The translations under genes and the position numbers were made by a program. A DNA stretch of 42,498 nucleotides, taken from a virus. Below, in pieces: positions 2,305 to 28,712 of this stretch (positions are counted from its first letter, which is position 1; every line of letters starts with the position of its first letter). The notes under the pieces were generated by a model, which was not told the origin of the DNA, did no database searches, and saw only the letters and a list, made by a program, of their open reading frames with translations. Location: IMG/VR virus record IMGVR_UViG_3300005836_000027, positions 1-42,498 of that record. One strand, 5' to 3'.

Positions 2305-2883
2305 ATGCAGGACGAAGATAAAGCCCTCCGCCGTCACTTCAGATCCAAATCCCGCAACGTCGCTCGACATCGTGACAAGACCGCCGTTTCACTCCGATAC
2401 GACGATTCAGGGAAACCGCTTACCGAAGAAACCTTTGACGCTAGAAAACATTTAAAGCTCCTTGATCAGAACGATTGGCGGTTCTTGGAAGCATGGAAAC
2501 GCCACGACTATAATTCCGAAAAAGCCGGGCATGAGCTAAACCTCTCGGACTATTCCGTGAAAGCGCTCGTGAAGAAACTCGAGCCTTTTCGTTTGGAGGA
2601 GCTTCACGATAAGGCGCTCGCGCAGATCCCCACCTCCACGTTCATTCAGGCCAGACATGTCGAGAATTTGTACCAGCCGATAGAAAAGAAACTCTCAGAC
2701 TCCGATCAGAAGTCGCTTCAGGAACTCGCCAAGATTCAGGGCGCGTACAAAAACACGAACCAGATCAACATCCAGAACAATGTGTTCCAGATGCCGAGCA
2801 TGACGCCCGAACAGCAGGCAGAGCTGAAAGCTCTGGGAGATCGTTTAGCCGATGTCGTGGACGCAGAGGTCGCTCATGGCTGA
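2305..2883 (+). CDS. terS: Putative terminase small subunit
   Basis: It lies immediately upstream of, and overlaps, the large terminase gene. The segment HDYNSEKAGHELNLSDYSVKALVKK looks HTH-like. The ORF is open from 2242 (TTG), and the first ATG is at 2305. Confidence 0.45.
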   Translation: MQDEDKALRRHFRSKSRNVARHRDKTAVSLRYDDSGKPLTEETFDARKHLKLLDQNDWRFLEAWKRHDYNSEKAGHELNLSDYSVKALVKKLEPFRLEELHDKALAQIPTSTFIQARHVENLYQPIEKKLSDSDQKSLQELAKIQGAYKNTNQINIQNNVFQMPSMTPEQQAELKALGDRLADVVDAEVAHG

Positions 2884-4333
2884 CGTGCGTCCATGGCTCC
2901 TCGCGCAAGGATCGCTGAAATTCTTTATGACGAAGTATCTCCACGACCCCAAGACGGGCGAACTTCTTCGGTGGCTTCCGCATTACGACGCGTGGTATCG
3001 AATCGCCTGTGATGAGAAACGCTCGAATGTGGAGTCTCCCAGAGGCCATGGCAAATCCGTATTCTGGAGTTACGCGCTTCCCTTGTGGGACGTGATCCGA
3101 GGCGGAGCGGATTTTCTGCTTGTGTCATATTCCGAAGGACAGACCGTTGAACTCTTAAGACTAATTAGAAATGAGGTGGAGTCCAATGAATTCCTTGCCC
3201 CTTTACGTCCCTCCACAAAAGAAATCTGGATGGCTGATAAACTCGGCTTTAGTGATGGAGGCATTATTCGTGGTCTTGGCTTTGGTACCTCTGCTCGCGG
3301 GTTACATCCTAAGCGAATTGTTGGCGACGATATGCTCAAAGATTCAGGCGGGATCTCGCCCGAAGAACAGGAACGGTTCTGGTTCGGAGTAGTCGCCGGG
3401 ATGGCGATGCCTGAAACAAAAATCCACGCCATCGGAACGCCCATTGACTTCGACGATCTTCTCCAGAAACTCGAGAACAATCCCGTGTACTTCAACTGGA
3501 AAAAGCCCGCGCTCTTAAAAGACGGAGCGCCCATGTGCCCACAGCTTTTCACGAAAGAGAACTTGGAATTCAAGCGTCAGGAACAGGGCTCCTTACAGTT
3601 CGCAAGAGAATTTATGCTTGAACGCATTGATCCGGCGACTCAGCCCTTTAAGCGTGAGTACGAAACGCTTTACGAAGAAGCCCCCGCTCGTGAACGATAC
3701 ATGGTGGTGAACACCATCTGCGATCCGGCCTATACGGAGAACGACGGCGACGGCACCGCCATCATCACGATGGGCATTACCCACGGCAATCATGGATACG
3801 TGCTCATGCGGTCGCTTATCCGAAGAGAAGATCCCGGCATGATCGTGGACGAACTCTATAAGCACATTCATGCTCACGCGCCTGACAATGTAGGCATCAA
3901 GCGCCGCAAAGGCGACGCGATCTCGTTTACATTTAACGAGCGCCGCGTCCGTGACCAGATGTGGAATTTCAAGTACGTGGAAATTAAAGACACGAAATCG
4001 AAAACCGATAAATCAAGAATTGGCGGCCTTGTTCCCCGGTGGGAAGCCCGAAGTATTCACATCCACAAAGAGATGAAAGATCTGCTCAAGCAGTTCTATG
4101 AGTTCAGGCTGGACGACTCTCATCAGCACGATGACATGGTGGACGCGCTCGCGGATTGTTTTTCGCCGGACGTGGCGCGCCCGAACGCAGGGCATCAGTA
4201 TGTGCCGCGTCCGGAGACGTCTCGCGTGGGGGTTCCCCTTTACGGAATCGGAAACGGAAAAAGCCGGGCCTCGGACGGACAGGTGGAAGATGTTCTCAAG
4301 AGCTGGAAAGTCGTTTCGAAAGTCGCCGCTTAA
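2852..4333 (+). CDS. terL: Terminase large subunit
   Basis: Walker A-like PRGHGKS and Walker B-like RIVGDDML are present. The C-terminal nuclease motifs are ICDPAYTENDGDGTAI and HQHDDMVDALADC. An alternative start is ATG 2876. Confidence 0.9.
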   Translation: MSWTQRSLMADVRPWLLAQGSLKFFMTKYLHDPKTGELLRWLPHYDAWYRIACDEKRSNVESPRGHGKSVFWSYALPLWDVIRGGADFLLVSYSEGQTVELLRLIRNEVESNEFLAPLRPSTKEIWMADKLGFSDGGIIRGLGFGTSARGLHPKRIVGDDMLKDSGGISPEEQERFWFGVVAGMAMPETKIHAIGTPIDFDDLLQKLENNPVYFNWKKPALLKDGAPMCPQLFTKENLEFKRQEQGSLQFAREFMLERIDPATQPFKREYETLYEEAPARERYMVVNTICDPAYTENDGDGTAIITMGITHGNHGYVLMRSLIRREDPGMIVDELYKHIHAHAPDNVGIKRRKGDAISFTFNERRVRDQMWNFKYVEIKDTKSKTDKSRIGGLVPRWEARSIHIHKEMKDLLKQFYEFRLDDSHQHDDMVDALADCFSPDVARPNAGHQYVPRPETSRVGVPLYGIGNGKSRASDGQVEDVLKSWKVVSKVAA

Positions 4334-4591: not shown

Positions 4592-4792
4592 ATGGTTGCT
4601 AAAAAAAGAAAATACGTCTGGAAAAAGAGCGTGGAAGAGGCGCCTGCCGAAGAGACGGTTTCCGCGCAAGTCCCTGCGCCGCCGGTCGTGGAAGCGAAGC
4701 TCCCGATCAAAGACGCGCAGGTTCTTTGCGATTGCGGAAATCCCGCGAACCCCGGCGACCATCAGTGCTGGCGCTGTTCGCATAGGACATAA
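4592..4792 (+). CDS. Small Lys-rich protein with a C-terminal zinc knuckle (CDC...CWRC)
   Basis: 66-aa ORF whose stop directly abuts the portal ATG (TAAATG). It has no SD of its own. Its ATG lies inside a 13-codon micro-ORF (4561-4602) that does have a strong SD. Confidence 0.4.
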   Translation: MVAKKRKYVWKKSVEEAPAEETVSAQVPAPPVVEAKLPIKDAQVLCDCGNPANPGDHQCWRCSHRT

Positions 4793-6865
4793 ATGCAAGA
4801 GAACATTCAAGAGGGCGTGTCGCAAGGGATTCCCGGGGAAGATCCCCTTGTCGTCAAACGCAAGAACGAACTGCTCATGTACGTCCAGAGCTTCTACCGG
4901 CGAAGCTGGGATTGGCGTTCACAGCGCTTTCATTCCAAATGGGACAGGAATGACCGGGACTATAATTCCATTTACGATCCCGTCAGGGCCTCTCAGAAAG
5001 AGCCGTGGCAGGAAACGATTCATACGGGCCTCACCGTACAGAACATCGAGGTTATCCATTCTCAAATCTACAAAACGATGATGGCTCCCCGTCCCTGCGT
5101 TCAGACCCAGGCCGGTCCTGCGGGTGACAATCTACAGGCGCGGCTCATGCAGGATTGCGTGGCCGATCAGTTCCAAAAGGGCCAATTTGACGTGAGCTTT
5201 TACGATACGTCGAAAGAGGCCGTGAAGTACGGCTCCGGGTTTATGAAGATGTACTGGGAAAAAGTGGAAGATACCCGCACCCGGCGCGTTCCCGTGATGC
5301 AATCGCCTATGGATCAGATCGCGTCCATGCCTCCCGAGGCCATGACCGGACAAGTCCCGCTTCCGTCCCCGTCCATTCAGGGGTTCCAGATGCAGAATCA
5401 GGTGATCCTGATTAAAGACCAGATGTGCTACAAGTACGTCCATATCCGCGACGTGTTTCCAGAGCCGAACACGACCACATGGGATAAGCTCATCCACCGC
5501 GACAAAATCACTTATGGCGAGATTGTGAAGAATATCCGCGCGGGCGCGTTCTTTGACGTGCGGGCACAGCTTGAAAACGTGACGGAAGGCGAGAAGTTTG
5601 AATCGGATCTTTCCACCATCAAGCAGGAACTCGGATACTTCGACACGAACAGGACGCTTTCCAAATTCGAGAAGAGACATACGGTCTGGGAACTCTGGTG
5701 CCCGATTCCGCGCAAGTGGATTAAGTTTGATATCCCGGACGGCGATGACGCGGAAATCCTGGTCCCCGCCAAAGTCATGATCGCGTCCAATATGGCGCTC
5801 CTGGCGTCCGAGGAAAACTATTTATTTGACGGCGAAACGCCCATTCTCAAAATGGATTACATCCGTACGGGGCAATCCTACGGCATGGGCGTGTGCGACT
5901 TGATTGGAGACGATCAGCCGTTGTCGAACGAAATCGTGTCGAGTCGCATCGATAACTTGAATCTCATTCTCCATAAAGGCATGGCGGTGGTTGAAAACGG
6001 GCTCGTGAACCCCGAAGAGGACATGACGGTCAAGCCCGGATGGGTGCTTCGTTTTAAGCAGATGGTGGACGATGTGCGGAAGTTTTTAGTGCCGATTGAG
6101 TTCCCAGACGTGACGGCCTCAGCCTACCGGGAAAATATTGAAGTCGGACTTCGCGTTCAGGAAAAGACGGGCGCCAACAAAGTGACGCTCGGAACCTCCA
6201 GCCAAGTAACCGACACCAATCAAACGCTTGGCGGGATGGAACTCCTCAAGCAGATGTTCAATGAACGCGTGGCGGCCTTGGGGATGGTGATTGAGTCCGT
6301 GTTTCTTGTCGTGGCGGCCCGGAAAACCTACGGGAGCATATACCAGAGGTTTGCGTCCGACCCCGAAGGGCTCAAGTTTATCCTAGGCGACGACATGGTG
6401 GTGATTGGCGAGCTTCCGAACCCCATGGGCCCGGCGTACCCGCCCATCCCCCATCAGGTTCCGCGTTATATGGCGTTTGCTTTTGTGCCGCCTGAGATCG
6501 TGAACAATGCTTACATTTACAAGCCGATGGGGATTTTCTCCATGGAGAACAAGATCGTGAAATCCGCGCAGGTGATGGACATGATCAAGCTCAACATGGG
6601 GAATCCAGGCTTTGACACGCAAGCGGCAAGCAAGTATTTGGCCGTTGACATTCAAGGCATCAACGAGGCCGAGAAGTGGTTTAGAGAAGTTCCCATGATT
6701 CCTCTAGCGATGATTCCGCCAGAGCTTCTTCCCATGATTCTTCCGCCCCCTGGCGGAGGTTCCACGAACAAGAAGAACACGCCAGGGATGAAATCAGGCC
6801 CGAACGGAAACGGGGCGACGTTTGCGCCGCCCAATCCCGTCAATCGTCAGCCGGTGGCTCCATGA
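4793..6865 (+). CDS. Portal protein
   Basis: 690 aa, located between terminase and scaffold/capsid. Size and synteny are typical of podovirus portals. No motif-level proof. Confidence 0.7.
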   Translation: MQENIQEGVSQGIPGEDPLVVKRKNELLMYVQSFYRRSWDWRSQRFHSKWDRNDRDYNSIYDPVRASQKEPWQETIHTGLTVQNIEVIHSQIYKTMMAPRPCVQTQAGPAGDNLQARLMQDCVADQFQKGQFDVSFYDTSKEAVKYGSGFMKMYWEKVEDTRTRRVPVMQSPMDQIASMPPEAMTGQVPLPSPSIQGFQMQNQVILIKDQMCYKYVHIRDVFPEPNTTTWDKLIHRDKITYGEIVKNIRAGAFFDVRAQLENVTEGEKFESDLSTIKQELGYFDTNRTLSKFEKRHTVWELWCPIPRKWIKFDIPDGDDAEILVPAKVMIASNMALLASEENYLFDGETPILKMDYIRTGQSYGMGVCDLIGDDQPLSNEIVSSRIDNLNLILHKGMAVVENGLVNPEEDMTVKPGWVLRFKQMVDDVRKFLVPIEFPDVTASAYRENIEVGLRVQEKTGANKVTLGTSSQVTDTNQTLGGMELLKQMFNERVAALGMVIESVFLVVAARKTYGSIYQRFASDPEGLKFILGDDMVVIGELPNPMGPAYPPIPHQVPRYMAFAFVPPEIVNNAYIYKPMGIFSMENKIVKSAQVMDMIKLNMGNPGFDTQAASKYLAVDIQGINEAEKWFREVPMIPLAMIPPELLPMILPPPGGGSTNKKNTPGMKSGPNGNGATFAPPNPVNRQPVAP

Positions 6866-8408: not shown

Positions 8409-9449
8409 ATGGCAGATACTAATACCAGTACCACCAGCAACGATAACTTGATGGCGGCGTACTTCAGCCAGGACATGATTGCGCGTCTTGAGCCGAATAC
8501 GCCGCTCATTGAGTTTGCCGTCAAAGATGACCTTCCTCTTCGCACGGGTAAAACCGCGACGTTTAACGGATGGCGTTCTTTGGACGGCGCTTCGACCTCG
8601 CTCTCAGAAGGCACCGCGAACTCGCTTCCGGCGCTTTCTTCCCGCAGAGTCGTGGCGACCATCGTGGGATACGGTCGTGGCGTAAAGCTCACGGACCTGT
8701 TCCAAATGACCTCGTTCTTCGATGCCGTCAATGGCGCGATGGATGTTTTGACGGATTCTGCGAGGAAAACCGTTGAAAAGATGTGTCAGATGGGTATTTA
8801 TAAAAACAGCATCCTAAAAAATGCAAGGACAACGACGAATCTGTCGAGCTATATGTCGTCCGTCGCGTCGGCCTTCTGTGCGATCAACGGGACACACAGC
8901 GGGGATCTTCAGTTCCAGTTCCCCGCCGTATTCGGAGCTTCTGTGGCGCGGTTAAGCGCTATTGGAGCCGTTGCTCCTACCACGTCGGCGCAACTCTCGG
9001 TCTTTTCCACGCGAAAAGCCGTGACGCGCCTTCGTTCAAGAGATGCTCAGCCGATGGCGGACGGGTACTTCATTGGATACGGAACGCCTCAGTCCCTGCA
9101 CGGCCTGAGACGTGACCCCACATGGGCTGTCTGGAATACTGCCCAGAACTCGAAAGAGACGATGTATCGGGGAGAAGCAGGCCGCGTTGAGAATGTTCGG
9201 TTCATCAACTCGACCATGGCTTTCCGGTACGCGGTGGCGGCGCACTCCATTAACGGCGTGTTTATCTTCGGACAGGGAGCCTTCGGCTTCACGTCCTTGG
9301 ATGGCATGGTGAAAATGATGATCGCAAGAGGTCCGGATAAAGCGGACACTTGGGACCAGTTTACACCGGTAACCTACAAAGTCTACGGGGCGGCGGTGGC
9401 GTTAAATCCATCGGCGGGCTGTATTCTTTGGGTCGCAGAGAAACTCTAA
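8409..9449 (+). CDS. Major capsid protein (HK97-fold type inferred)
   Basis: 346 aa, positioned after the scaffold gene. The N-terminal pattern PLIEFAVKDDLPLRTGKTATFNGW is typical of phage major capsid families. A hairpin follows the gene. Confidence 0.75.
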   Translation: MADTNTSTTSNDNLMAAYFSQDMIARLEPNTPLIEFAVKDDLPLRTGKTATFNGWRSLDGASTSLSEGTANSLPALSSRRVVATIVGYGRGVKLTDLFQMTSFFDAVNGAMDVLTDSARKTVEKMCQMGIYKNSILKNARTTTNLSSYMSSVASAFCAINGTHSGDLQFQFPAVFGASVARLSAIGAVAPTTSAQLSVFSTRKAVTRLRSRDAQPMADGYFIGYGTPQSLHGLRRDPTWAVWNTAQNSKETMYRGEAGRVENVRFINSTMAFRYAVAAHSINGVFIFGQGAFGFTSLDGMVKMMIARGPDKADTWDQFTPVTYKVYGAAVALNPSAGCILWVAEKL

Positions 9450-9456
9450 ACCAAGC

Positions 9457-9480
9457 CCCGGGGGTGTAAAAGCCCCCGGG
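9457..9480 (+). terminator. GC-rich hairpin after the capsid gene (candidate leaky terminator)
   Basis: CCCGGGGG (9457-9464) pairs perfectly with CCCCCGGG (9473-9480) across an 8-nt loop. The downstream T-tract is only weak (CACAATTT). Confidence 0.45.
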
Positions 9481-9489
9481 CACAATTTA

Positions 9490-10317
9490 ATGAACATCTC
9501 AGTGACAACGCCCGTCTTAAACGAAGTAGACCTGATTGGATATTCGATCATGGCGGCAGAACCTTATGTGGCGGAGTTCGTTTATACGCTTGACGAGGCT
9601 TCCACTGACGGCACTCAGGACATCCTCCATTACTTAAAAGAGAAGTATCTACATGAACGCCTCGTGATTATTGAAACGCCGACGTTTCATCCTTCCGATA
9701 TGAGGGCGTATAACAATGCTTTCAATGTGGCGATTGACGCTTCAAAAGGAGATGTCTGTTGGTTTTTGCACCCGGACATGATTTTGACGGAAGGCGGAGC
9801 CTTGGAAGGGGAGGCTTTGGCTTGGTGGATAGACGTGACGAGTTATGCGAAGGACTTGGATACCGTGGTCACGAAAGGGAGGTGTAACCAATGGAAGAAT
9901 ATACACGCGAAGAAATTCGGCTTGCACTATTTCGGTGGGTATGGGTCCGAGAACGAAGATTTCTACCATTCGGCAATAACGGGGACAACGCACAAGCATT
10001 ATGGGACAGACTTCTCAGAGTATCCGTTCCAAGTCTTAAAGAGTGCGTTCAAAATTAACCATTACTGTGAGACAAAGGATTACGAACGGCGCTTCGAGAA
10101 GATGAAGCTCTGTCTCAAGACGCAGAATCCAAAGATGTCGGATGAAATGATTGCTGAATTGGCGGCCAAGCATCCCCGGGTAACGCTTGAGTCGTCGAAC
10201 GAGCAGTTCGGGCGATTTGCGTTTGGGCCGCGCACAGACCCCGTTCCTGATGTTTTTTTAAAGCACAAAGAGGAGTTCATGCAGTTCAAGAAAGAGGAGG
10301 CATTATCACATGGCTAA
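9490..10317 (+). CDS. Glycosyltransferase family 2-like protein (degenerate DxD)
   Basis: The N-terminus ISVTTPVLNE...LDEASTDGTQDIL resembles the GT-A fold. HPD (WFLHPDMIL) sits where the DxD motif would be. Confidence 0.55.
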   Translation: MNISVTTPVLNEVDLIGYSIMAAEPYVAEFVYTLDEASTDGTQDILHYLKEKYLHERLVIIETPTFHPSDMRAYNNAFNVAIDASKGDVCWFLHPDMILTEGGALEGEALAWWIDVTSYAKDLDTVVTKGRCNQWKNIHAKKFGLHYFGGYGSENEDFYHSAITGTTHKHYGTDFSEYPFQVLKSAFKINHYCETKDYERRFEKMKLCLKTQNPKMSDEMIAELAAKHPRVTLESSNEQFGRFAFGPRTDPVPDVFLKHKEEFMQFKKEEALSHG

Positions 10318-10543
10318 TGGGTACAGAGTAAGACTGGAAAGTGCGGTATCCGATGGAACAAACATTTACACCGAAATGAAAATATCGAGTCCGACTCAGA
10401 CGTTGCCTTTGGTGAGGCCGTCATTTCCTGTGGGAACGTCGGCGGCTTCGATCGTTGCTTATATGCAGAAAATGGCCGATAACGGGCCTACGCTTGCTTC
10501 GGCTATTTCCGACCTTGTCGGCTCAAATGTTTCGGGAGCCTAA
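10310..10543 (+). CDS. Hypothetical protein inside the GT island
   Basis: 77-aa ORF with a good SD (GGAGG) upstream of the ATG. Confidence 0.45.
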   Translation: MANGYRVRLESAVSDGTNIYTEMKISSPTQTLPLVRPSFPVGTSAASIVAYMQKMADNGPTLASAISDLVGSNVSGA

Positions 10544-10555
10544 AAGGGGAAAATA

Positions 10556-10846
10556 ATGAGAAAAATAATTGGAAGTCTTGTTGTTTCATTGCTGGCGGCA
10601 TACGGGTCATTTGTTTATGCAGACAGTCAGGCTACATCCTTGGGGCTTGTCCGTGTGCAGATTTCAAGCGCACCCATTGCTCTTATCAATACAACTGTTC
10701 CATTCGGGGCATTTGAGTTGATTGGTTGTACGGATTGCATTCAGAGTTCTCTCTGTATTTCTTCCGGGACGGGGACTGGCGCCTACGTTGTTTCTTCGTC
10801 GAGCCATTCGATTGGGAGCCTGGCAACCATGGTCCATTGTCGGTAG
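10556..10846 (+). CDS. Small secreted Cys-containing, Ser/Gly/Thr-rich protein
   Basis: The N-terminus MRKIIGSLVVSLLAAYGSFVYA/DS looks like a Sec signal peptide. SD is AAGGGGA. The predicted mature part has 4 Cys. Confidence 0.5.
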   Translation: MRKIIGSLVVSLLAAYGSFVYADSQATSLGLVRVQISSAPIALINTTVPFGAFELIGCTDCIQSSLCISSGTGTGAYVVSSSSHSIGSLATMVHCR

Positions 10847-10852
10847 CAATAT

Positions 10853-12322
10853 ATGGCTAAAGAACCCATTCTCAGTTTCGTCATCCCGGTCTATAAGAAA
10901 TCTCCCGAGACGTTTACTAAATGCCTTCATTCCCTGTTTGACCAGTCGATCAAAGACTTTGAAGTCATCTGTGTGTTTGATGGCCCTGACGCGGAGCTGG
11001 AAGCGGTAGCCAAAAGGTACAACGTGACGTCTCTTGTGATTGAGCATGGCGGGGCTTGCAAGGCCCGAAACGCGGGATTTGCGGCTTCGCGCGGTCGGTA
11101 CGTGGCGCACTGGGACGCGGATTGCTTTATAAAGCCTGAAGCGGCGAAGATTTGGCTTGAAACCTTCGATCGTAATCCAGAAGCGGCTTTCGTCTATTCG
11201 GGGTATGAATTCGAAAACGAAGGCGGCGGATTTAATTCAGAGATGTTTGACGAGTATAGCCTTAAGTGCGGCAATTACATTGCTTCCATGTTTCCAGTCA
11301 AGCGGGAGTTCTTTCCGGGGTGGGACGAGTCGCTCAAGGCGGCGCAGGATTGGGATTTCTGGCTCTCTGTAGTCGAAAAAGGCGGAAAGGGCATATTTAT
11401 CCGTGGGTATGGGTTTATAACGGAACTCCCAGAAAAAGACAGCATTTCGTATTCGGGATGGTCTGCGGCCAACCGAGTGGAAACGATCCGAACGGTTCGC
11501 AGAAAACACGGCATCCAAGACAAAGACATCGCTGTTTACGGCGCCGTCCATAACCTGAAAGCCCTGCATTTAGCCAAGCTCTTGGGCGGGGATACGCTTA
11601 AAGGCTCTGGCCTTCCGGCGAACACGTACAAGATGATCTTAAATCTTGGTTATAGCCAGATGGTTCGCTTTAAAGGAGTCGCCGAAGGCGCGGTCAAGAT
11701 TCATTACTGGATGCCATGGGATATTGACTGTCTCTATGAGATCGCTCATCGTACCGCTAAAGAAACGATTCGCCTTGCCAATGAGGAGATCACGCACCAG
11801 TTCTGCAACGATATCGTGTCACAGAAAAGGCTCAAGGAGCTTGGGATTAAAGCAGAGATTCTGCCGCTTCCGACCGAGATTGATGATTTGGAGTCGGACC
11901 TTCCGGCGGACTTCAGGGTCTTAATTGACGTAGACAAAGCGCACGAACCGATTGTGGCGAATTTGGACAAGGACATTCCCTACATCAAGATTGACCGGCT
12001 GGAGATGGCGGCTTCGATCTCTAAATACTCGCTTCTCATCAGCTTTCATGAGAATCCTTACGCCGACGAGGGGATGAAGCGCTTTATGTTAAATGGCCGA
12101 AACATCATTTCAAACGTTCAGGCTCCCTTCTGCGGGTTCTTTGACTTAGAGCGTGGGCATACGGAGTTCCGAAAAGAGTTGATCGCGCAAATCCGCATGG
12201 CACGGAATTATCCTTTCAACAAAGAGGCGCAGGACTACTATAAGACGCTCGTTGATCCTTGTAAGTTCAAAGAACGGGTGTTGGCACTACTTCCGAAGCC
12301 TGTTTTAGAGGTGGTTGGATGA
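10853..12322 (+). CDS. Two-domain glycosyltransferase (N-terminal GT2, C-terminal GT-B-like region)
   Basis: GT2 motifs are LSFVIPVYKK, FDQSIKDFEVICVFDG, ARNAGFAASRG and the DxD in HWDADC. The C-terminal ~250 aa resemble a divergent Rossmann-type GT domain. Confidence 0.8.
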   Translation: MAKEPILSFVIPVYKKSPETFTKCLHSLFDQSIKDFEVICVFDGPDAELEAVAKRYNVTSLVIEHGGACKARNAGFAASRGRYVAHWDADCFIKPEAAKIWLETFDRNPEAAFVYSGYEFENEGGGFNSEMFDEYSLKCGNYIASMFPVKREFFPGWDESLKAAQDWDFWLSVVEKGGKGIFIRGYGFITELPEKDSISYSGWSAANRVETIRTVRRKHGIQDKDIAVYGAVHNLKALHLAKLLGGDTLKGSGLPANTYKMILNLGYSQMVRFKGVAEGAVKIHYWMPWDIDCLYEIAHRTAKETIRLANEEITHQFCNDIVSQKRLKELGIKAEILPLPTEIDDLESDLPADFRVLIDVDKAHEPIVANLDKDIPYIKIDRLEMAASISKYSLLISFHENPYADEGMKRFMLNGRNIISNVQAPFCGFFDLERGHTEFRKELIAQIRMARNYPFNKEAQDYYKTLVDPCKFKERVLALLPKPVLEVVG

Positions 12323-13017
12323 ACCCTAGAGCGAGTTTTGTAATTCCGGTGTTTAACGGAGAAGCCTATCTTCGGGAGACGCTTGACTCCTGCCTCGACC
12401 AGTCCGTGAAACAGCTTGAAGTGGTTGTGGTGGACGACGCGTCTACGGACGGGACCAAGGAGCTGATTGAGTATTTCGTTAAGAAAGACTCTCGGGTTAA
12501 GCCTATTTTCCTGACGGAAAATGCTGGATCAGCGAACGCCAGAAATGTCGGAAATCGGGCGGCGCAAGGGCAATATATTTTTGTTCTTGATGGGGATGAT
12601 AAAGCGACTCGGAACCGCGTGAAGGATACGATCACTTGTTTTGAGGCGAAGAATGCCGATCTTGTCTATGGAGGGTTTATCACGATTGACACGTTTGGGA
12701 ACATGGAACGCAGGTTTGCCCCGCATCCGTTTACCCGGGAAGCGTCGCTTAAGTACAAGACGCACCAAATCTGTCATTCCACGGTGGCTTACCGCAAAGG
12801 GCTGACCTTAAACGTGCAGTACCGGGAAGATCATGCCAAGTACGCGATGGAGGATTTCAGCTTTATCTGGAACGCCCACGCGAAAGGGTACAGGTTTGCC
12901 TACGTCAAGAATCCATTCTGCTATTACAGGGTGATGGATAGCTCGCAATCGACCCGAAGAAACGAATCCGAGGTCGTGAAAGCGAAGGAAGAATTTGTCA
13001 AAGCACTCGAAATCTAG
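12319..13017 (+). CDS. Glycosyltransferase family 2
   Basis: Motifs are SFVIPVFNGEAYL, LEVVVVDDASTDGT, ARNVGNRAAQG and FVLDGDD. The start is ATGA-coupled to the upstream GT. Confidence 0.85.
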   Translation: MNPRASFVIPVFNGEAYLRETLDSCLDQSVKQLEVVVVDDASTDGTKELIEYFVKKDSRVKPIFLTENAGSANARNVGNRAAQGQYIFVLDGDDKATRNRVKDTITCFEAKNADLVYGGFITIDTFGNMERRFAPHPFTREASLKYKTHQICHSTVAYRKGLTLNVQYREDHAKYAMEDFSFIWNAHAKGYRFAYVKNPFCYYRVMDSSQSTRRNESEVVKAKEEFVKALEI

Positions 13018-14206
13018 GCCGTTTCGCATTGCGATGATTCCGACCGCTAATGGCGGCGTGAATTACACGCGCCTCGCGGCATGGGCGTTTGAAATGCGGA
13101 AGTATCGGAACGTGGAAGCGAGCGTCCTTTACTTTCAGTACAACCTGATTCCGACGCATCCGTGGCAGAAAGACATCATTTCGGTCCCGCAGATCCGGCA
13201 GGACATTGAGTGTTTTGCCAGAGCCTCGGACGCCATGATTTGGCATCCCGTCTTTTACGATCACACCCTTGAATTCTTCAATGAGATCAGGCAGAAGTAC
13301 GGGAAGCCAACTTTTATCGAGACGGACGACAATTACATTGACGTTCCTGCGTGGAACGAGGCATTTCATTCCTTTGGTCCGACCTCGGCGCATCGGTATA
13401 TTGCGACGGAAGCGATGGCGTTTGCTGATGGGATGTTCGTGTCAACGCCGCACTTAAAAGAACTTTACGGGAAGTTTAACGAGAACATTCATGTCGTCGA
13501 GAATTCTCTTGATTTCAAGGGAGACAGGAAGTTTGTGGGATGGGATCAAGTCTCTGTCCGAAAGCACAAGGGGACCCGGCTTGGGTGGATTGGCGGGCGG
13601 TCGCATTTCAACGATTTGATGATGGTGGCACCTGTTTTGCGGGAGATTCTTGTCAAATACCCCGACGTGACGCTGTGCCTTGTGAATTCGGCGATCCAAC
13701 CCTCTTGCAAAGCGCTCGGCATAGCGTACCCTTTTGAAGGGCTTACGAACGTGCATTATGCGGATCGGTCGGTTCCGATCAACCGTTACGCGCAGTTTGC
13801 GGCGTCTTTTGGGTTTGATATCGGCCTTGCTCCGCTCGAGGACTGCAACTTCAATCGTTCCAAGTCGAATCTACGATGGCTGGAATATTCGGCCATGAAA
13901 ATTCCAACGATAGCGACTGATATCTCGCATTTCTCGCAGTCTATTCGTGACGGCCAAGACGGATTCCTCATCAAGAACAATGACTTGCAGGAGTGGAAGA
14001 ACCGTTTGGAAATGCTTATTAAGAGCCAAAGCACCAGAGAAGAAGTCGGCAGGCAGGCGTACAAGCGTGTCAAGAAGGATTTCAACTTAAAGACGAACGC
14101 CGCCAAGTACGTGCGGCTTCTAAAGAAGCTGAGCGATTTCAATGTGTTTACCACCCCGGAATACGAGGCGGTTGACGAACAATCGGAGGCGGCATTATGC
14201 AGTTAA
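12995..14206 (+). CDS. Glycosyltransferase, GT-B fold (GT1/GT4-like)
   Basis: The N-terminus is FRIAMIPTANGG. The C-terminal segment LEYSAMKIPTIATDISHFSQSIRDGQDGFLIKNND matches the EX7E-type GT4 sugar-donor region. Confidence 0.8.
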   Translation: MSKHSKSRPFRIAMIPTANGGVNYTRLAAWAFEMRKYRNVEASVLYFQYNLIPTHPWQKDIISVPQIRQDIECFARASDAMIWHPVFYDHTLEFFNEIRQKYGKPTFIETDDNYIDVPAWNEAFHSFGPTSAHRYIATEAMAFADGMFVSTPHLKELYGKFNENIHVVENSLDFKGDRKFVGWDQVSVRKHKGTRLGWIGGRSHFNDLMMVAPVLREILVKYPDVTLCLVNSAIQPSCKALGIAYPFEGLTNVHYADRSVPINRYAQFAASFGFDIGLAPLEDCNFNRSKSNLRWLEYSAMKIPTIATDISHFSQSIRDGQDGFLIKNNDLQEWKNRLEMLIKSQSTREEVGRQAYKRVKKDFNLKTNAAKYVRLLKKLSDFNVFTTPEYEAVDEQSEAALCS

Positions 14207-14907
14207 CAGACATCCAAGTATTGATTGGAACCCTGACGAATGATCCGAACCATGAAAGATACAGCACGACCGATATCGGCACGGAGTTTGATAACACGTC
14301 CGACAAATGGAACGTAGAAGCCAAGATCCTGAAAGATACGGTGACGCTCACGGTGGTGGCTGGAACCCGCCAGTACGCGCTTTCAGGGCTTACGGGGACG
14401 CCGATTTCGTTTACGCGGGTTACGCACAAGGGGCTCAAGCTAAACAAGAAAGACAAGGCATGGTTTGACCTTTATTACGGCGGGACGGACTGGACGACGA
14501 CGCCCGGGACGCCTGTGGACTATTTCGTGGAGGCGACGGACCCCGACTTACAGTATTTAACGGTGTTTCCTACCCCGGGTGATGGCGACGCGGGGGATAA
14601 CCTTGTCTGCGAGTACATCAAGCGGCACACGTCCATGTCGGCATCTACTGACGAACCGCTTAATTCCACCCCGCTTCTTGCTCCGTACCATTGGGGCATG
14701 TGCTACGACGCGGCGGCAAGACTCTTGATGCGCGACCCCACACAGGAAAACGTGGCGAAGGTGTCGGGATACGCGCAGATCGCCAATGGCGTGATGGCGG
14801 ACGTTGTTCAGGTATACAAAGCCTTTGAGAAGGAAGTTCCGATGCGCCTCAAGTCGATTACGAGGCCTGTCGGACAAGCGGTGACGGGGTGGCGCAGGGG
14901 ATGGTAG
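14197..14907 (+). CDS. Putative head-tail adaptor / connector protein
   Basis: 236 aa, and the first gene after the GT island, where an adaptor is expected between capsid and tail genes. Assigned by position only. Confidence 0.35.
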   Translation: MQLTDIQVLIGTLTNDPNHERYSTTDIGTEFDNTSDKWNVEAKILKDTVTLTVVAGTRQYALSGLTGTPISFTRVTHKGLKLNKKDKAWFDLYYGGTDWTTTPGTPVDYFVEATDPDLQYLTVFPTPGDGDAGDNLVCEYIKRHTSMSASTDEPLNSTPLLAPYHWGMCYDAAARLLMRDPTQENVAKVSGYAQIANGVMADVVQVYKAFEKEVPMRLKSITRPVGQAVTGWRRGW

Positions 14908-15019: not shown

Positions 15020-17641
15020 TTGGAAGATGGAGAGTCCCAAGACCTCTTGAACGTGGACATCATCCCCGGCGGCAAGGGCGTAAAGAAGCGGGACGGCTAT
15101 GGTCTTCACAAGACTGTAGGAATCAGTACGTCGGCTATTCATGGCGGTCACTACTTTCAAGATACGTCTGGATCGGATATCCAGCTCTGGGGTGGGGACG
15201 TATACCTGAACGCCTCCGTAAACGGTGCGGCAACGGTCCAGATTGCTACTGGAACGCTCGCGGCAACGTGGCAATGTACGGACAACTCCGGTTATGCCTA
15301 TTGCGTCACGTCCAGCCGAAATACGCCAGTTCGCACGAGTGGAACGACCGCCACAACGACGTATCAGACAGGAATCCCTCTTGGGACCATGATTACGAAC
15401 ACCCCGGACCGCCTGCTTGTCGCCGGTGTGTCCGGCGCGGAGTCTACGCTCTACTTCTCACAAGCCAACACATTCACGAATTTCACAACGGGCATCAATT
15501 CGGCTGACCCTTTCACCGAAGTCATCAATTCCCCAGGCAGTCGCATAACGCATATCCGTTACGCCTGCGGGAAGGTCTTGTGGTGGAAGGATGGGTCTTT
15601 TGGGTACTCACTAGGATCAGACCAGTTCAACCTGGAGAACGTGACGGTTTCACAGAACATTGGGACGCTCGACAACTCCTCAGACGAATACAACGGGATT
15701 GTCTATTTCAGGGGACAGGATAACCACATTTACCAATACGATTGCTCAAACGTCACGCGTCTCTCCCGCAAGATCACGCCAACCGTAGAAGGATCTGGCC
15801 GCAGGAAGGCAAACTCTTGGACGCAGACGAGTCAGACGGATTTCGATAGCGGTGTTGGCATCCTATCTGGGAGTTTTTCTACGAGCCTTTCCCCTGGGGA
15901 TGTGGTTCTTTCTTCTTTTACAGCAACCGATACTATAACAGCCGACTTCGCGCAAGGAACGCTCACCAATACGACGGCTTACGCTGGCATTGGCGTAAGG
16001 CTCAGCACAAGCCCCGGAAACTTGCCAAACAATTCCATGGAGACGGCGAACGTCGGAGATGTCCTGTCTGATTGGGGCGCATATTTATTTACACGCTATG
16101 ACGGAGACGGGTCCATCGGCGGGAGTGCTTGCGGAACATCATGGTCTGACTTCGTGGGTACGAATTTTGCTTATTCTCTAGCTGGCCAATCGCCTTCCGC
16201 GTCTCCGAAGATCGTGACCACCATCTATGAGCTTTTGTCTGGAACAACGCTATATACAGACACAATCAATATGAGCGGAACGGCAGATTGTTCCTTTTCT
16301 ACGAGAACGATTACTGTATCTGCTTCCGATGTTGGAAAGCGCGTACAGCTTGTATTTATTTCGTCAGATACGAGCCCATCATCGGACATTGCCGTTCTTA
16401 GAACAACAAATTCGTTCGTTCTAAGCGGAGACATAAGCTATATGTATGCATGGGATACTAATGGCGGGAATCCTTATGCGGCGATTGACTGGGTAACTGG
16501 TGGAAGCAACACGATCAACTCAGGCCAATTCACGTCAAGGGTATTCAATACAGGTGTAACAAGCGCCATGGTTTACACTTCAGCCAACTGGACAGTAAAC
16601 ACGTCAACCCCATATCTCGAGGTGCAGACTTCTGCAAACGGAAGTAGCGGATGGACAAAAGTAACTTCCAGTACCGGTACAAACGTTTCCACGAACCAAT
16701 ATATACGCTACTTGTCGAGCTTTACGGTTGGCTCTAGCGATAACGCTCTATCCACACTTGATGACGTGTCATTTGTGGCTAAATCTACGGGCGGCGTATA
16801 CCTGTCAGCAGTCAATAACGCCTCGGGTGTCACGGAATGGAGTACCTTCGGGGCGAACGATCAGACGGGCGGGGGAACTATCGTTTACTCCGTTCGCGCT
16901 TCGACTCAACAGTTCACTATCCAGTCTAGCACCCCGCTATGGGCCACGCAGGACAAAAACGCTACCGTGAACTACGCCACAGGCACTTATATGCAGATGC
17001 GCGGGGCCTTTACCACCACTTCGGCCACCCAAGCCTTTGCTCTTAATGATTTTAGCTTCAACTGGTTTGAAGGAAACGCCGTTGATAAAGCCTACATCAA
17101 GTATTGGAACGACTACGTGTGGGTGGCGGTGTCTAGCGGAACGGCTGGTCTGAACAACCGCATCCAACGGTGGGACATCTTAAACCAGACGTGGCTCTTG
17201 GACGACATCTCAGCCAACGGGTTCTTGGTCGATAACAACAACCTCTATTTCGGAAGCTCATCTGTCGGCAAGATTTTCAAGTACGGGTCGGGTCTTACGA
17301 CGGATGATTCGTCTGACATCAACAGCTATTGGCGGTCAAAAGACTTCACAGGAGCAGACCCCTTTGTTCAGAACACATGGGACCAGCTCGACTTCATTGT
17401 GAAGCGGTCCTCCGGGACGTTCCTCGCGGTGGATTACCGCGTGAACGGATCAAGCGTCACGAACACCTATTCGATTAACCTCTACGACCCCGTTAAGACG
17501 ATCCTGCACAGGGGAAACAACCTCCCGGGGAAGAACGGGACATTCTTTAACGTGCAGTTTGGGGATAACAGCTCCAATCCCCGGTACGAGGTGTTGGGGC
17601 TCAGGGCGAGGTATACACCCCTTGGATGGCGGCCGGAATGA
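15020..17641 (+). CDS. Large virion-associated structural protein (tail nozzle or fibre-like, beta-rich, S/T/G/N-rich)
   Basis: 873 aa counted from the first ATG. The frame is open back to 14885 and encodes a signal-peptide-like extension (see findings). No specific family was recognised. Confidence 0.6.
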   Translation: MEDGESQDLLNVDIIPGGKGVKKRDGYGLHKTVGISTSAIHGGHYFQDTSGSDIQLWGGDVYLNASVNGAATVQIATGTLAATWQCTDNSGYAYCVTSSRNTPVRTSGTTATTTYQTGIPLGTMITNTPDRLLVAGVSGAESTLYFSQANTFTNFTTGINSADPFTEVINSPGSRITHIRYACGKVLWWKDGSFGYSLGSDQFNLENVTVSQNIGTLDNSSDEYNGIVYFRGQDNHIYQYDCSNVTRLSRKITPTVEGSGRRKANSWTQTSQTDFDSGVGILSGSFSTSLSPGDVVLSSFTATDTITADFAQGTLTNTTAYAGIGVRLSTSPGNLPNNSMETANVGDVLSDWGAYLFTRYDGDGSIGGSACGTSWSDFVGTNFAYSLAGQSPSASPKIVTTIYELLSGTTLYTDTINMSGTADCSFSTRTITVSASDVGKRVQLVFISSDTSPSSDIAVLRTTNSFVLSGDISYMYAWDTNGGNPYAAIDWVTGGSNTINSGQFTSRVFNTGVTSAMVYTSANWTVNTSTPYLEVQTSANGSSGWTKVTSSTGTNVSTNQYIRYLSSFTVGSSDNALSTLDDVSFVAKSTGGVYLSAVNNASGVTEWSTFGANDQTGGGTIVYSVRASTQQFTIQSSTPLWATQDKNATVNYATGTYMQMRGAFTTTSATQAFALNDFSFNWFEGNAVDKAYIKYWNDYVWVAVSSGTAGLNNRIQRWDILNQTWLLDDISANGFLVDNNNLYFGSSSVGKIFKYGSGLTTDDSSDINSYWRSKDFTGADPFVQNTWDQLDFIVKRSSGTFLAVDYRVNGSSVTNTYSINLYDPVKTILHRGNNLPGKNGTFFNVQFGDNSSNPRYEVLGLRARYTPLGWRPE

Positions 17642-18249
17642 GGTATTTACTTTTGATCTTTCTGGCTTCTTCGAGTTTTGCGGCATCCAAGTACCAGTAC
17701 AAAGATCCAAAGATGGATGACGAGATTCAGAATATTTACCACGAGATTGACAGCGTTTTAAAAGGAGACGTGCGTATCAGCTCAGTAACGATAACGACGT
17801 TGACGGTAACGGGGACGATTAATATCTCATCTCTTGGGAAAGTTAAACAAGTGACGATGTGTACTGTTTCGGCGGCTTCTTCAACCGTTGTGGCAAGTTT
17901 CGTGCCGTCGAATATGACGTGTTCTGTGACTCCCACGGCGACTACAAGCAATGTTTTGATTCAGGTTAACGGTCAAGCCGCCACGAACACAAACGTCAAT
18001 CGGTGCCGGTTTTCCATTTTCAGGGGGACGACGAATCTTATGGATGCGACGGAGGGGGGGACGAATCTCTTGAACAATGTCGTTACCACGACGCTGGAAG
18101 TGCCGATGTCGCTTACGTATTTGGACAGTCCTTCGTCGACGAGTTCAACGAGTTATACCCTGTATTTTAAAAGCGACGGGACAAATGCGTGTCGGTACAA
18201 CAGCCTTAGCGCTACAGGCGTAATGGTACTCACAGAAATAGGATCTTAG
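17638..18249 (+). CDS. Signal-peptide-bearing, Thr/Ser-rich structural-module protein
   Basis: ATG 17638 overlaps the upstream stop (ATGA). The N-terminus is MRYLLLIFLASSSFA/AS. The ORF track begins at 17626. Confidence 0.5.
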   Translation: MRYLLLIFLASSSFAASKYQYKDPKMDDEIQNIYHEIDSVLKGDVRISSVTITTLTVTGTINISSLGKVKQVTMCTVSAASSTVVASFVPSNMTCSVTPTATTSNVLIQVNGQAATNTNVNRCRFSIFRGTTNLMDATEGGTNLLNNVVTTTLEVPMSLTYLDSPSSTSSTSYTLYFKSDGTNACRYNSLSATGVMVLTEIGS

Positions 18250-18258
18250 GAGGAATTT

Positions 18259-19227
18259 ATGGCAACACCTTGGGGTAGTGGAACAGGCGGAGGAATAGAG
18301 GCTCAGCGATGGTACGCGAACCGGGACTTTCAGGAGATTTTCGGGAGAGCGCCTTCGGAAGCGGAGTTGTCTCAATTTCAAGCGGCGTATGATTCTGGCG
18401 ATATCAATAAAGCCAATGTCTCAGGCGGGCGCTCGTCCATCGCTCAATACTACCAGTCTCAGGAGAACACGCCTGATAAACAATACGCCAGACAACAGGC
18501 GGGATACGAAGCAAAAGCCCCTGAGTTTTATGGACAAATTGACAAGATGTTCCAAGGAACGCTTGGGCGTGATGCAACCGACGCAGAGCGAAAGCATTTT
18601 GGATCGTTGCTCGCATCCGGGCAAGTGGATGAGTACGGAGTTGGACAATTCCTACAAGCGCTCCCAGAGAACGTCAAAAAACAGGACACCGAATTCAGGA
18701 ATCAATTAAGCGGAGAACTTCAGAAGCAGGACGCTCAGTATTACAACGAACAAATCATGCCCGGGATTCAGTCGGCGTTTGCCCAGCAGGGCCGTGACCC
18801 AAGATCATCGGGTTTTGCCAATTCGCTCGCGCTTGCCGCACAGGGTCAGAACAGGCAGAGAGAAGGGTTTCTCTCGAACCTATCGGCTCAACAGTACGGC
18901 GGAAGTCAGAATTTAGCTCAGAGGGATTATTTGAACGCTTACGGTCAATATACGGGGTTGCAGGATTATTCGCGTCAACGTTCCGCGCAACTTCAGGACG
19001 CGACGACCGGTCGAGTGAATGAGTTGCAGAACTACGCCCTTCAGAGATCGGCTTATGACGATTACTTGAGACGATATGGGAAACGGTCTAACGCGCAAGG
19101 GATCGGAAGTCTGGCAGGTGGTATTGCTGGCATGGGCGGCGCATTTTTGACAGGGAACCCCTCCGCCGCAGGAGTGGGGTATCAGATCGGCTCTGGTCTT
19201 GGCGGCGGGATAGGGAGCTTTTTCTAA
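18259..19227 (+). CDS. Gln-rich protein with two DUF4214-like segments and a C-terminal glycine-zipper tail
   Basis: The segments are IFGRAPSEAELSQF...SQE and LGRDATDAERKHFGSLLASGQV...LPE. The C-terminus is GIGSLAGGIAGMGGAFLTG...GSGLGGGIGSFF. It is a candidate internal or ejection protein. Confidence 0.45.
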   Translation: MATPWGSGTGGGIEAQRWYANRDFQEIFGRAPSEAELSQFQAAYDSGDINKANVSGGRSSIAQYYQSQENTPDKQYARQQAGYEAKAPEFYGQIDKMFQGTLGRDATDAERKHFGSLLASGQVDEYGVGQFLQALPENVKKQDTEFRNQLSGELQKQDAQYYNEQIMPGIQSAFAQQGRDPRSSGFANSLALAAQGQNRQREGFLSNLSAQQYGGSQNLAQRDYLNAYGQYTGLQDYSRQRSAQLQDATTGRVNELQNYALQRSAYDDYLRRYGKRSNAQGIGSLAGGIAGMGGAFLTGNPSAAGVGYQIGSGLGGGIGSFF

Positions 19228-21873: not shown

Positions 21874-25265
<3,392 letters not shown>

Positions 25266-25269
<4 letters not shown>

Positions 25270-27318: not shown

Positions 27319-27551
27319 TGGTTAAAGTCATCACGATTGACCGCGAAGATTGCGAGTTCCTTTCGGAGAAGTTCAGGTCGCCACGATTTAAGAATGTTCG
27401 GTTTAAGACGTGCGAATCACCGTTTCATTACTGGGTGTTGGGGTCGGCGAGTGCGAGCCGGTGTCTTTGCGGTAGATACAGGTATACGAGATGCTACGAA
27501 AAAAACAAATGGCTGATTCGTCTTATTATTGCCAAAGAGGAGGGCCTGTGA
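27318..27551 (+). CDS. Hypothetical Cys-rich basic protein
   Basis: 77-aa ORF, TAATG-coupled to the upstream gene and GTGA-coupled to the downstream gene. Confidence 0.35.
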   Translation: MVKVITIDREDCEFLSEKFRSPRFKNVRFKTCESPFHYWVLGSASASRCLCGRYRYTRCYEKNKWLIRLIIAKEEGL

Positions 27552-28452: not shown

Positions 28453-28712
28453 TGAACCGCATCAAACTATGGATTATTGAAAAGGGGGCTAATCGCATGA
28501 TCCAAAAGCTCGAAGGATACAAGACCCATGCCGTTCAGGTCGTGGCCGTCCTCGTGGGCGTTTCATGTTTCATCTGGGGCCCGATTGACTTGGGAAGTAT
28601 TCACTTGCCTAAAATCGAGTTCAAGGAGTTGCTTGAAATTCTGCAAATCGGAGGCGGCCTTTCGTTTCTGAGAATGGCCCTTAACAAAAAAACGGAGGAA
28701 CCACCACAATGA
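28452..28712 (+). CDS. Putative holin-type membrane protein
   Basis: The pattern LEGYKTHAVQVVAVLVGVSCFIWGPIDLG...LQIGGGLSFLRMALNKK resembles small phage holins. The start is GTG 28452 or ATG 28498. Confidence 0.45.
   Translation: MNRIKLWIIEKGANRMIQKLEGYKTHAVQVVAVLVGVSCFIWGPIDLGSIHLPKIEFKELLEILQIGGGLSFLRMALNKKTEEPPQ

Follow-up and report, generated by a model that had tools for sequence, protein, structure and literature searches.

A conserved glycosyltransferase cassette between the capsid and adaptor genes of an uncultured podophage lineage, with a possible role in virion glycosylation

Introduction

What purpose could four glycosyltransferase (GT) genes serve in the middle of the structural operon of a short-tailed phage? 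The question is raised by the IMG/VR virus record IMGVR_UViG_3300005836_000027, hereafter the window (the whole stretch of DNA that was analysed), which is the complete genome, 42,498 bases, of an uncultured short-tailed phage (podovirus). Between the genes for the major capsid protein and the head-to-tail adaptor it carries a cassette of four GT genes, designated here GTa to GTd, and two small open reading frames (ORFs), s77 and s96. Judged from gene content and its comparison across relatives, we lean towards the reading that the four enzymes would form a late-expressed, cytoplasmic protein-glycosylation pathway decorating the phage's own virion. That the N-terminus of the capsid protein would be the specific acceptor is a plausible proposal, which we hold with less than even confidence. 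The features of the capsid-to-adaptor region are as follows.

8409-9449, + strand: major capsid protein, N4-gp56 family (phrog_1357, E 8e-29)
8412-8438, + strand: Thr/Ser run ADTNTSTTS, capsid residues 2-10, the proposed glycan acceptor
9457-9480, + strand: GC-rich hairpin CCCGGGGG-N8-CCCCCGGG with a perfect 8-bp stem and without a U-tract, 3' of the capsid stop codon
9490-10317, + strand: GTa, a divergent GT2-like (GT-A) enzyme with H-x-D in place of DxD, of a family specific to the phage clade
10310-10543, + strand: s77, a small conserved protein, accessory and co-occurring with s96
10556-10846, + strand: s96, signal-peptide-like at its N-terminus, mature part rich in Ser/Thr/Gly and containing four conserved cysteines, accessory
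10853-12322, + strand: GTb, with two domains, GT2 (GT-A, approximately residues 1-200) and a compact GT-B fold (approximately 215-489)
12319-13017, + strand: GTc, a canonical soluble GT2
12995-14206, + strand: GTd, a GT4-like GT-B enzyme, conserved cassette core, always immediately 5' of the adaptor gene
14197-14907, + strand: SU10-type head-to-tail adaptor (PF24175, 52 bits)

The glycosyltransferases of the cassette

The six cassette ORFs, four for GTs and two small, lie where the original prediction had placed them, all on the + strand. The prediction had also attributed the four larger products to GT families, and Pfam, PHROG and Foldseek searches bear this out, the assignment of GTa being the weakest. 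The window copy of GTa scored 20.2 bits against PF00535 (E 6e-4), under the 23.3-bit Pfam cut-off. The same profile is matched by 34 of 46 members of the GTa family, with a best E value of 1.3e-7, and it is because of these matches across the family that GTa is assigned to GT2. Its motifs P-V-L-N-E and L-D-E-A-S-T-D-G-T, as well as an invariant F-L-H-P-D at the usual DxD site, are in register with GT-A landmarks, and F92, H94 and D96 are invariant in the family alignment. The GTa profile gave no meaningful match against PDB sequences. An hhalign comparison of GTa with GTb returned a low probability (2.3%), yet the GT-A motifs of the two were aligned in register.

The N-terminal part of GTb matched PF00535 with 78 bits (residues 8-128), and its D88-x-D90 columns are invariant in the alignment. 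The full-length AlphaFold2 model reached a predicted local distance difference test score (pLDDT) of 91.7, and the Foldseek neighbours of the N-terminal domain were K4CP, WrtF, AvpGT, TarP and SpsA. Residues 215-489 had no Pfam match. When the C-terminal 275 residues were modelled separately with AlphaFold2 (pLDDT 91.4), Foldseek matched the model to SenB (template modelling score, TM, 0.64), an Actinobacillus glucosyltransferase, SdgB, PimA/B, TarM and HepE, with TM values of 0.6-0.66 to SenB, 8xsg and HepE and a Foldseek probability of 1.0. These matches support a compact GT-B enzyme fold as the predicted structure of the C-terminal domain and, together with the PF00535 match, sustain the fusion of a GT2 and a GT-B-like domain that had been proposed for GTb. 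Since the C-terminal model resembles compact GT-B enzymes, five GT domains are supported for the cassette.

GTc matched PF00535 with 122 bits, GtrB-like/O-antigen PHROGs (phrog_841, E 2.9e-16) and, among PDB sequences, K4CP, GalT1, TarS, TarP and GmaR. GTd was recognized by PF00534 (36 bits), PF13692 (31.5 bits) and PF13524 (28 bits), all above the cut-offs, and by phrog_7162 (E 2.6e-34). Transmembrane segments were found in none of the GTs, the maximum 19-residue hydropathy being 1.17. As predicted from these sequences, the glycosyltransferases of the cassette are soluble, of GT-A and GT-B type, and intact in their catalytic motifs. Consecutive genes overlap at the GTa/s77 (8 nt), GTb/GTc (4 nt), GTc/GTd (23 nt) and GTd/adaptor (10 nt) junctions. 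These overlapping stop and start codons, together with Shine-Dalgarno-like motifs upstream of the cassette gene starts, confirm that the cassette lies inside the late structural operon, co-oriented and translationally coupled.

Conservation of the cassette across relatives

The block had originally been regarded as an island, possibly an indel between capsid and adaptor, and synteny contradicts this view. A capsid-protein search of viral contigs returned 28 relatives, with capsid identity from 85% to 47%, and in every sufficiently long one GTa, GTb, GTc and GTd are located between capsid and adaptor in the same order. The GT proteins diverge at approximately the rate of the structural proteins. 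In the relative L023 (relatives are cited by locus number) the identities to the window are 62% for the capsid, 60% for GTa, 59% for GTd, 54% for the portal and 50% for the adaptor. In comparison with L029, the proportion of synonymous differences (pS) was 0.66-0.81, which is saturated, and that of non-synonymous differences (pN) was 0.09-0.27 for the GTs; the ratio of the corresponding rates (dN/dS), where computable, was 0.06-0.08 for the GTs and 0.04-0.05 for portal and capsid. As a module the cassette belongs to the conserved core, with its proteins under the same constraint as portal and capsid. In the protein collection 495 homologues of GTb and 366 of GTa were found, on contigs that reach at most ~40-44 kb, for GTa almost all of 43 kb or less; a single contig of 84.7 kb, about twice the genome, which carries GTa and capsid cluster members, may have been assembled as a concatemer.

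A search of viral contigs with the GTd alignment extended this picture to 80 loci, with GTd identity from 72% to 24%. All loci that include the flanks show the order capsid, optional DegT/GTa/GTb/GT2, GTd, adaptor, and the minimal form consists of capsid, GTd and adaptor. We therefore consider GTd the conserved core and the other enzymes add-ons. GTd orthologues are carried by L040 (E 9e-36) and L050 (E 6e-18), and in the L050 group a single GT, which is GTd-like, is found between the capsid and an adaptor-like gene. In the GenBank metagenomic podovirus MW202801, whose capsid is ~24-26% identical to that of the window, the capsid gene is followed by genes for a radical S-adenosylmethionine (SAM) oxidoreductase, a GT2, a PhyH dioxygenase, a methyltransferase, a NodB-like deacetylase and a GT-B enzyme, and then by tail genes. 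This last GT is a GTd orthologue (24% identity over 381 residues, E 9e-36). The comparisons indicate that the cassette is older and wider than the window's clade. As to relatives in which the genes would stand beside non-structural O-antigen or teichoic-acid partners, which the original prediction had named as a finding that would speak against it, none was encountered, and more than 100 contigs keep the capsid-adaptor position.

The most divergent clade member, L024, retrieved itself alone when used as a query, and a deep alignment of capsids (A4) proved too diverged for patterns to be searched. A nucleotide search of 50,697 phage records with the capsid-to-adaptor region gave zero matches, and our literature search found neither the lineage nor podophage GT cassettes next to a capsid gene described. 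In L029, GTa and TerL share just ~60% identity with their window counterparts, against 75-92% for neighbouring genes, a pattern in the sequences that indicates mosaic exchange of single genes (GTa, TerL) within the clade. A separate GT cluster was noted in Escherichia phage ESCO13 (L123, NC_047770.1, 105097-108241), where four GT genes, two of them GTd-like, lie between lysis and primase/DNA polymerase genes. The annotation of this cluster gives no function, and Phapecoctavirus could be a culturable model for the GT-B family.

The capsid N-terminus as a candidate acceptor

The capsid protein starts with MADTNTSTTSND. Its Ser/Thr-rich N-terminus, to which the original prediction had drawn attention, is real and strongly conserved, since the pattern M[AVS][DN][TS][NLT][TS] was found in 110 of 120 capsid cluster representatives (61-96% identity), the remainder being mostly truncated gene calls. 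Positions 6 and 8 are Ser or Thr without exception, and position 4 in 111 of 113. All four Thr codons are about equally used in the run and Ser/Thr swaps occur; this variation shows that it is the amino acid that is constrained, not the RNA.

In deep GT-carrying lineages a Ser/Thr run is present in the first dozen residues, the remaining N-arm being different. The capsid starts there include MATTSTATTNFS, MSTGTNTTTTLS, MAINTTSTL, MAISSTTTL, MATYSTTTTST, MPTVSTTSLS, MTNTTTTSL, MAYSTTSNNS, MATTSTATT and MSTGTNTTTT. In contrast, GT-less related capsids begin with an extension of the ...LQFFADAGT... type that contains 0-2 Ser/Thr. At least four Ser/Thr in residues 2-13 were counted in 12 of 16 GT-positive versus 0 of 5 GT-negative capsid clusters (Fisher p 0.006; Mann-Whitney p 0.001), the clusters being built from complete proteins at 50% identity and phylogenetically non-independent, and the GT-positive loci having been partly chosen through GTd.

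The start of the capsid protein also contains an extended bacterial N-glycosylation sequon, D-x-N-x-S/T (residues 3-7, D-T-N-T-S, nt 8415-8429), and 110 of 113 close relatives have this Asn5. N-linkage at Asn5 was set aside as a general mechanism, as the Asn is lost in deep lineages and the Ser/Thr run is kept. For this reason O-linkage seems to be more general, N-linkage being possible within the window's own clade. The capsid profile gave weak matches only against the PDB.

Sugar-tailoring genes and a proposed pathway

Two further genes of the window may be related to the cassette.

993-2186, + strand: DegT/DnrJ/EryC1-family pyridoxal phosphate (PLP) enzyme, a nucleotide-sugar aminotransferase or 3-dehydratase (PF01041, 222 bits)
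29166-30641, + strand: radical-SAM enzyme with a B12-binding domain (PF04055, 87 bits; PF02310, 44.5 bits)

The best PDB matches of the DegT enzyme were ColD, perosamine synthetase and E1 dehydrase, and the enzyme probably supplies a modified sugar donor. Since many lineages have their DegT gene within the cassette, immediately behind that for the capsid, the DegT gene of the window is tied to cassette function. The radical-SAM enzyme matched best AprD4, a sugar-deoxygenating enzyme, and is possibly a sugar-tailoring enzyme too (deoxygenation or methylation), its link to the cassette being tentative. In L029 a radical-SAM homologue occupies the place that DegT has in the window, directly upstream of the terminase genes, which suggests an interchangeable slot for sugar-tailoring genes, and in L040 a radical-SAM/SPASM gene is found within the cassette. 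Close relatives carry one or two tandem class-I SAM methyltransferases (~185 aa, Methyltransf_11/23) between capsid and GTa, and in L002 and L004 there is an additional PF13712 GT-A gene in the same interval (methyltransferase or extra-GT loci at L002 9204-11085, L004 11000-12357, L018 1504-2651, L020 11059-12158, and others). As the window is without these genes, glycan tailoring differs among close relatives. Given their nearest solved relatives, the accessory genes are all of sugar-tailoring types.

In the pathway that we propose, GTd, the sole enzyme common to all lineages, would be the candidate initiating protein glycosyltransferase. With a nucleotide sugar as donor, it would attach the first sugar at Thr/Ser hydroxyls of the putatively exposed capsid N-tail, and it may also act on other virion proteins. 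GTa, both domains of GTb, and GTc would subsequently extend this sugar to an oligosaccharide, while the DegT enzyme, and possibly the B12 radical-SAM enzyme, would make an amino- or deoxy-sugar donor out of a nucleotide sugar of the host. Relatives would vary the glycan by means of extra methyltransferases, an extra GT-A enzyme, a deacetylase or a dioxygenase. The resulting glycan coat could shield or stabilise the particle, or alter its adhesion to surfaces. A broader form of the proposal is offered tentatively: that a large and widespread podophage lineage with N4-gp56-type capsids O-glycosylates a short Thr/Ser tag at the very N-terminus of the capsid protein by a self-encoded cassette kept at the capsid-adaptor position since the origin of the lineage, tag and GTd constituting the minimal system and added enzymes diversifying the glycan in the manner of O-antigen loci.

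Comparison with known systems

To our knowledge, virion glycosylation by phage enzymes has been proven only in some mycobacteriophages, where it alters antibody recognition of the particle. In Che8 and its relatives, phage GTs glycosylate capsid subunits in the cytoplasm and produce a glycan shield, according to three articles that cite this work (Freeman et al., 2023, via PMC12582341, PMC12619734, PMC11256854). The glycans are located at the C-termini of capsid and tail-tube subunits (PMC12619734), and F1-cluster phages such as Maravista, which are Che8-related, carry their GT genes near the genome 3' end and encode an integrase (PMC11256854). These phages are siphoviruses of Actinobacteria, temperate in the F1 cluster, whereas the window belongs to a podovirus without integrase, with GTs between capsid and adaptor and with an N-terminal Thr run. 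A C-terminal acceptor of the mycobacteriophage type is not available in the window, where the capsid C-terminus (...SAGCILWVAEKL) has no Ser/Thr tract and a tail tube is absent. In tblastn searches, Mycobacterium phages accounted for 0 of 138 records matching GTc (E 1e-3), and none was among the matches listed for GTd (best 40 of 145 records).

Chlorovirus PBCV-1 and mimivirus likewise encode cytoplasmic multi-enzyme systems that glycosylate their own virion proteins, and among viral proteins the structures closest to GTb are giant-virus GTs with several domains. Both systems employ multi-domain GTs and methyltransferases, and that of mimivirus also a DegT-type sugar aminotransferase. However, they belong to giant viruses of eukaryotes with capsid folds unrelated to that of the window, chlorovirus glycans are N-linked, and a link in gene order with the capsid gene is not known for them.

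The closest cellular analogue is the pathway of the serine-rich-repeat adhesins of Gram-positive bacteria, in which a GT4-type GT-B enzyme (GtfA/B) starts Ser/Thr O-glycosylation in the cytoplasm and GT-A enzymes (GalT1/dGT1) extend the glycan. GalT1 (5hea) is among the sequence matches of the cassette GTs, and the fold matches include SdgB, which is the GT-B enzyme in the related glycosylation of SD repeats, a likeness at the superfamily level only. The adhesin system is coupled to accessory Sec export and its acceptors are long repeats. The prophage systems GtrABC and TarP also rely on phage GT2 enzymes, GTc matches GtrB-like PHROGs, and TarP is a fold neighbour of the GTb N-terminal domain. 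These systems are temperate, involve membrane proteins (GtrA, GtrB with transmembrane helices, GtrC) or target wall teichoic acid, and are morons near attachment sites, none of which applies to the window. The portal and adaptor Pfam families of the window are shared with SU10 (Kuravirus), where gp9 is the capsid protein and gp11 the adaptor (PMC9509320), so at most one gene lies between them. The window has six genes (4.7 kb) in this interval, and its capsid belongs to the N4-gp56 family.

If the virion reading is true, virion glycosylation would be an ancient, lineage-defining trait outside Actinobacteria, conserved across an environmental lineage of hundreds of 90%-identity protein clusters on ~40-45 kb contigs. 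It would open a role for glycan coats outside animal hosts, in particle stability, adhesion, or escape from recognition by hosts or grazers. The lineage provides a defined candidate acceptor motif together with a one-enzyme minimal version, which could become a compact, portable tag-plus-enzyme tool for cytoplasmic glycoengineering.

Weighing of alternative functions

The position of the cassette in the morphogenesis operon, its coupling to the adaptor gene, the solubility of the enzymes, the lack of a multi-pass membrane protein, the apparently virulent lifestyle and the co-varying capsid N-terminus fit glycosylation of the virion and, taken together, tip the balance modestly towards it. In addition, sugar-tailoring genes accompany the cassette, and protein O-glycosyltransferases, namely SdgB, GalT1 (of the Fap1 pathway) and GmaR, are among the fold or sequence neighbours of the cassette GTs. 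The comparative evidence, meaning the fixed position and the co-varying capsid N-terminus, strengthens the original proposal that virions of this lineage, which has no cultured member, would be glycosylated. Several points weigh against it. Four GT-positive capsid clusters, L139 (median of two members), L162, L176 and L200, have no clear Ser/Thr run, and the association between run and GTs may partly reflect shared ancestry, as the GT-positive lineages may form one clade. The closest solved GT2 relatives are the polysaccharide and teichoic-acid enzymes K4CP, TarP, TarS and WrtF, and GT2 and GT4 enzymes without membrane segments act also on lipid-linked or polymeric acceptors. GTd-like genes occur elsewhere in cultured phages: Phapecoctavirus has them beside primase/DNA polymerase genes, and in Streptomyces phage Zuko the position is upstream of the terminase. 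Finally, the mycobacteriophage analogy is loose, because there the glycans are C-terminal and, in Che8-related F1-cluster phages, the GT genes lie near the far end of the genome.

It was considered whether the soluble GTs may instead remodel host envelope glycans, acting late in infection at the inner membrane face on lipid-linked intermediates of O-antigen, capsule, exopolysaccharide or teichoic-acid-like polymers. Superinfection could thereby be blocked, or progeny kept from sticking to debris, and host flippases and polymerases would export the products. The solved relatives just mentioned and the GtrB-like/O-antigen matches of GTc are in line with such a role, as are the name that JGI gives to the GTa and GTb families, 'glycosyltransferase involved in cell wall biosynthesis', and the fact that many peripheral cell-wall GTs have no membrane segments. 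However, the window encodes no initiating phosphoglycosyltransferase, flippase, polymerase, Wzx/Wzy-type protein, GtrA/GtrC or any other multi-pass membrane protein. Pfam/PHROG scans of the proteins, which covered ORFs of at least 100 aa on the coding strands with the exception of a few (e.g. 4596-5081, 18389-18709) and of the small ORFs, revealed no integrase and no DNA polymerase, and no tRNA gene was found in the genome. A capsid-protein scan of 185,579 species genomes returned no relative, and hence no prophage or host information, and in a scan of the same genomes with the GTb alignment no full fusion was detected, only generic GT2 domains in cellular polysaccharide loci. The lifestyle is apparently virulent, and lysogenic conversion is unlikely because the complete genome has no integrase and the clade is absent from these species genomes. 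Moreover, every lineage has the genes at the capsid-adaptor position and not, like morons, near genome ends, expression coupled to tail genes would come late for a surface change that depends on export, and neither the gene position nor the co-varying capsid N-terminus would be explained. We therefore regard envelope remodelling as unlikely.

The other explanations appear weaker still. The glycans may be placed elsewhere on the virion than at the capsid N-terminus (on adaptor, nozzle, fibres or a scaffold-associated factor), or the product may be a free assembly glycoconjugate, the Thr-rich capsid tail being an unrelated trait of the lineage. GTd always adjoins the adaptor gene, with an overlap in the window, an 873-aa tail protein and a downstream 207-aa protein consist of 25-28% Ser/Thr, and the four capsid clusters without a clear run would be accounted for. 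However, fibre-like proteins are commonly Ser/Thr-rich for structural reasons, and the capsid run is held at the amino-acid level over deep divergence solely where GTs are present, which renders this explanation quite improbable. We consider it very improbable that the targets are secreted phage proteins, s96 or Ser/Thr-rich late proteins with signal peptides, glycosylated in the cytoplasm before export in the manner of glycocins, HMW1-type proteins or autotransporter adhesins. The s96 product, encoded in the cassette and Ser/Thr/Gly-rich with a signal-like N-terminus and four conserved cysteines, would suit this idea, as would the other late proteins with signal-like N-termini and the Actinobacillus glucosyltransferase among the Foldseek neighbours of the GTb C-terminal domain. 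However, about half of the clade and every minimal capsid-GTd-adaptor lineage do without s77 and s96 and yet keep their GTs, so glycosylation of s96 is not the core function, and a dedicated peptide exporter is not encoded. Sugars could also be placed on modified bases of the phage DNA against restriction, as in T-even phages or TET/5mYOX-linked systems. Classic phage GTs modify DNA, multi-GT DNA hypermodification is documented (bioRxiv 10.1101/2023.12.21.572611), the GTd-like genes of Phapecoctavirus stand beside replication genes, and the window carries a DNA methylase (30766-31452). However, that sole methylase is of the N6/N4 amino type, the scanned ORFs of at least 100 aa include no dCMP/dUMP hydroxymethylase, TET/5mYOX dioxygenase, C5-cytosine methylase or phage DNA polymerase, and the cassette lies in the morphogenesis operon, with the replication genes on the other arm. 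DNA glycosylation is accordingly extremely improbable, and both it and Gtr-type conversion were rejected since their partner genes were not found, for DNA glycosylation among the scanned ORFs of at least 100 aa.

Small ORFs and signal-peptide proteins

The two small ORFs are real genes under purifying selection, with pN values in comparison with L029 of 0.07 for s77 and 0.16 for s96 at saturated synonymous sites. By tblastn, s77 was found in about half of the relatives, and s96 is similarly present in about half of the clade, being absent where GTa abuts GTb. Homologues of s77/s96 occur in L002, L004, L008, L009, L015, L017, L018 and L029. The mature part of s96 comprises ~65 aa with a C-x2-C...C...C pattern and ends in ...LSTGTVCK or similar, and s96 could be a secreted, possibly glycosylated peptide. 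The original description of a secreted Ser/Gly/Thr-rich, Cys-containing peptide among the GTs thus holds as regards the signal-like start and the four cysteines, although the peptide is accessory and outside the conserved core.

Signal-peptide-like hydrophobic starts are unusually numerous in the late operon (17626-18249, 24958-25269, 25266-26459, 27491-28138, 28709-29119) and were also seen in relatives (L021 7366-9720, L024 8418-8924). Such starts are odd for products of virion genes. Several of these late proteins are Ser/Thr-rich and one has a cohesin-like domain. A 136-aa late protein with a signal peptide ends in ...YKLW, resembling an outer-membrane beta-barrel. The probable diderm host that had been suggested for the phage is not established, since the signal-like starts, this aromatic end and the SU10-like portal and adaptor are weak hints.

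Genome layout and the post-capsid hairpin

An exact direct terminal repeat of 90 bp (1-90 = 42409-42498) shows the genome of ~42.4 kb to be complete, either circularly closed or terminally redundant. Its other genes are arranged as follows.

+ strand arm: endonuclease VII, followed by the DegT-family PLP enzyme (993-2186)
+ strand arm: probable small terminase and large terminase TerL (2852-4333, phrog_38)
+ strand arm, between terminase and capsid genes: portal (SU10_portal family, matched by relatives) and scaffold-like protein
+ strand arm, after the adaptor: large tail proteins, lysis-like small membrane proteins and the B12-binding radical-SAM enzyme (29166-30641)
minus-strand arm: N6/N4 DNA methylase (30766-31452), RusA, SSB, Cas4-like exonuclease and RadC

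The capsid gene, whose relatives are named 'N4-gp56 family major capsid protein' by JGI, is followed by the hairpin at 9457-9480. A strong hairpin after the capsid stop codon was found in approximately 17 of the 20 relatives folded, the sole structure in L008, L009 and L018 lying well downstream of the stop, and in L040 the position is taken by a canonical terminator with a T-run. The hairpin is likely an attenuator or an mRNA-stabilising element that separates high capsid expression from the genes downstream. It is followed by a conserved GCACAATTT(A)ATG leading into the next gene (9481-9492 in the window, also in L007, L014, L017 and L029), which may represent a conserved translation-initiation or processing context.

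The early arm contains two GC-rich tandem repeat arrays, at 33062-33297 (period 12, ~19 copies) and 34025-34179 (period 6, ~26 copies). The former falls within a minus-strand ORF of 253 aa (32995-33756), and the local GC skew is strongly negative.

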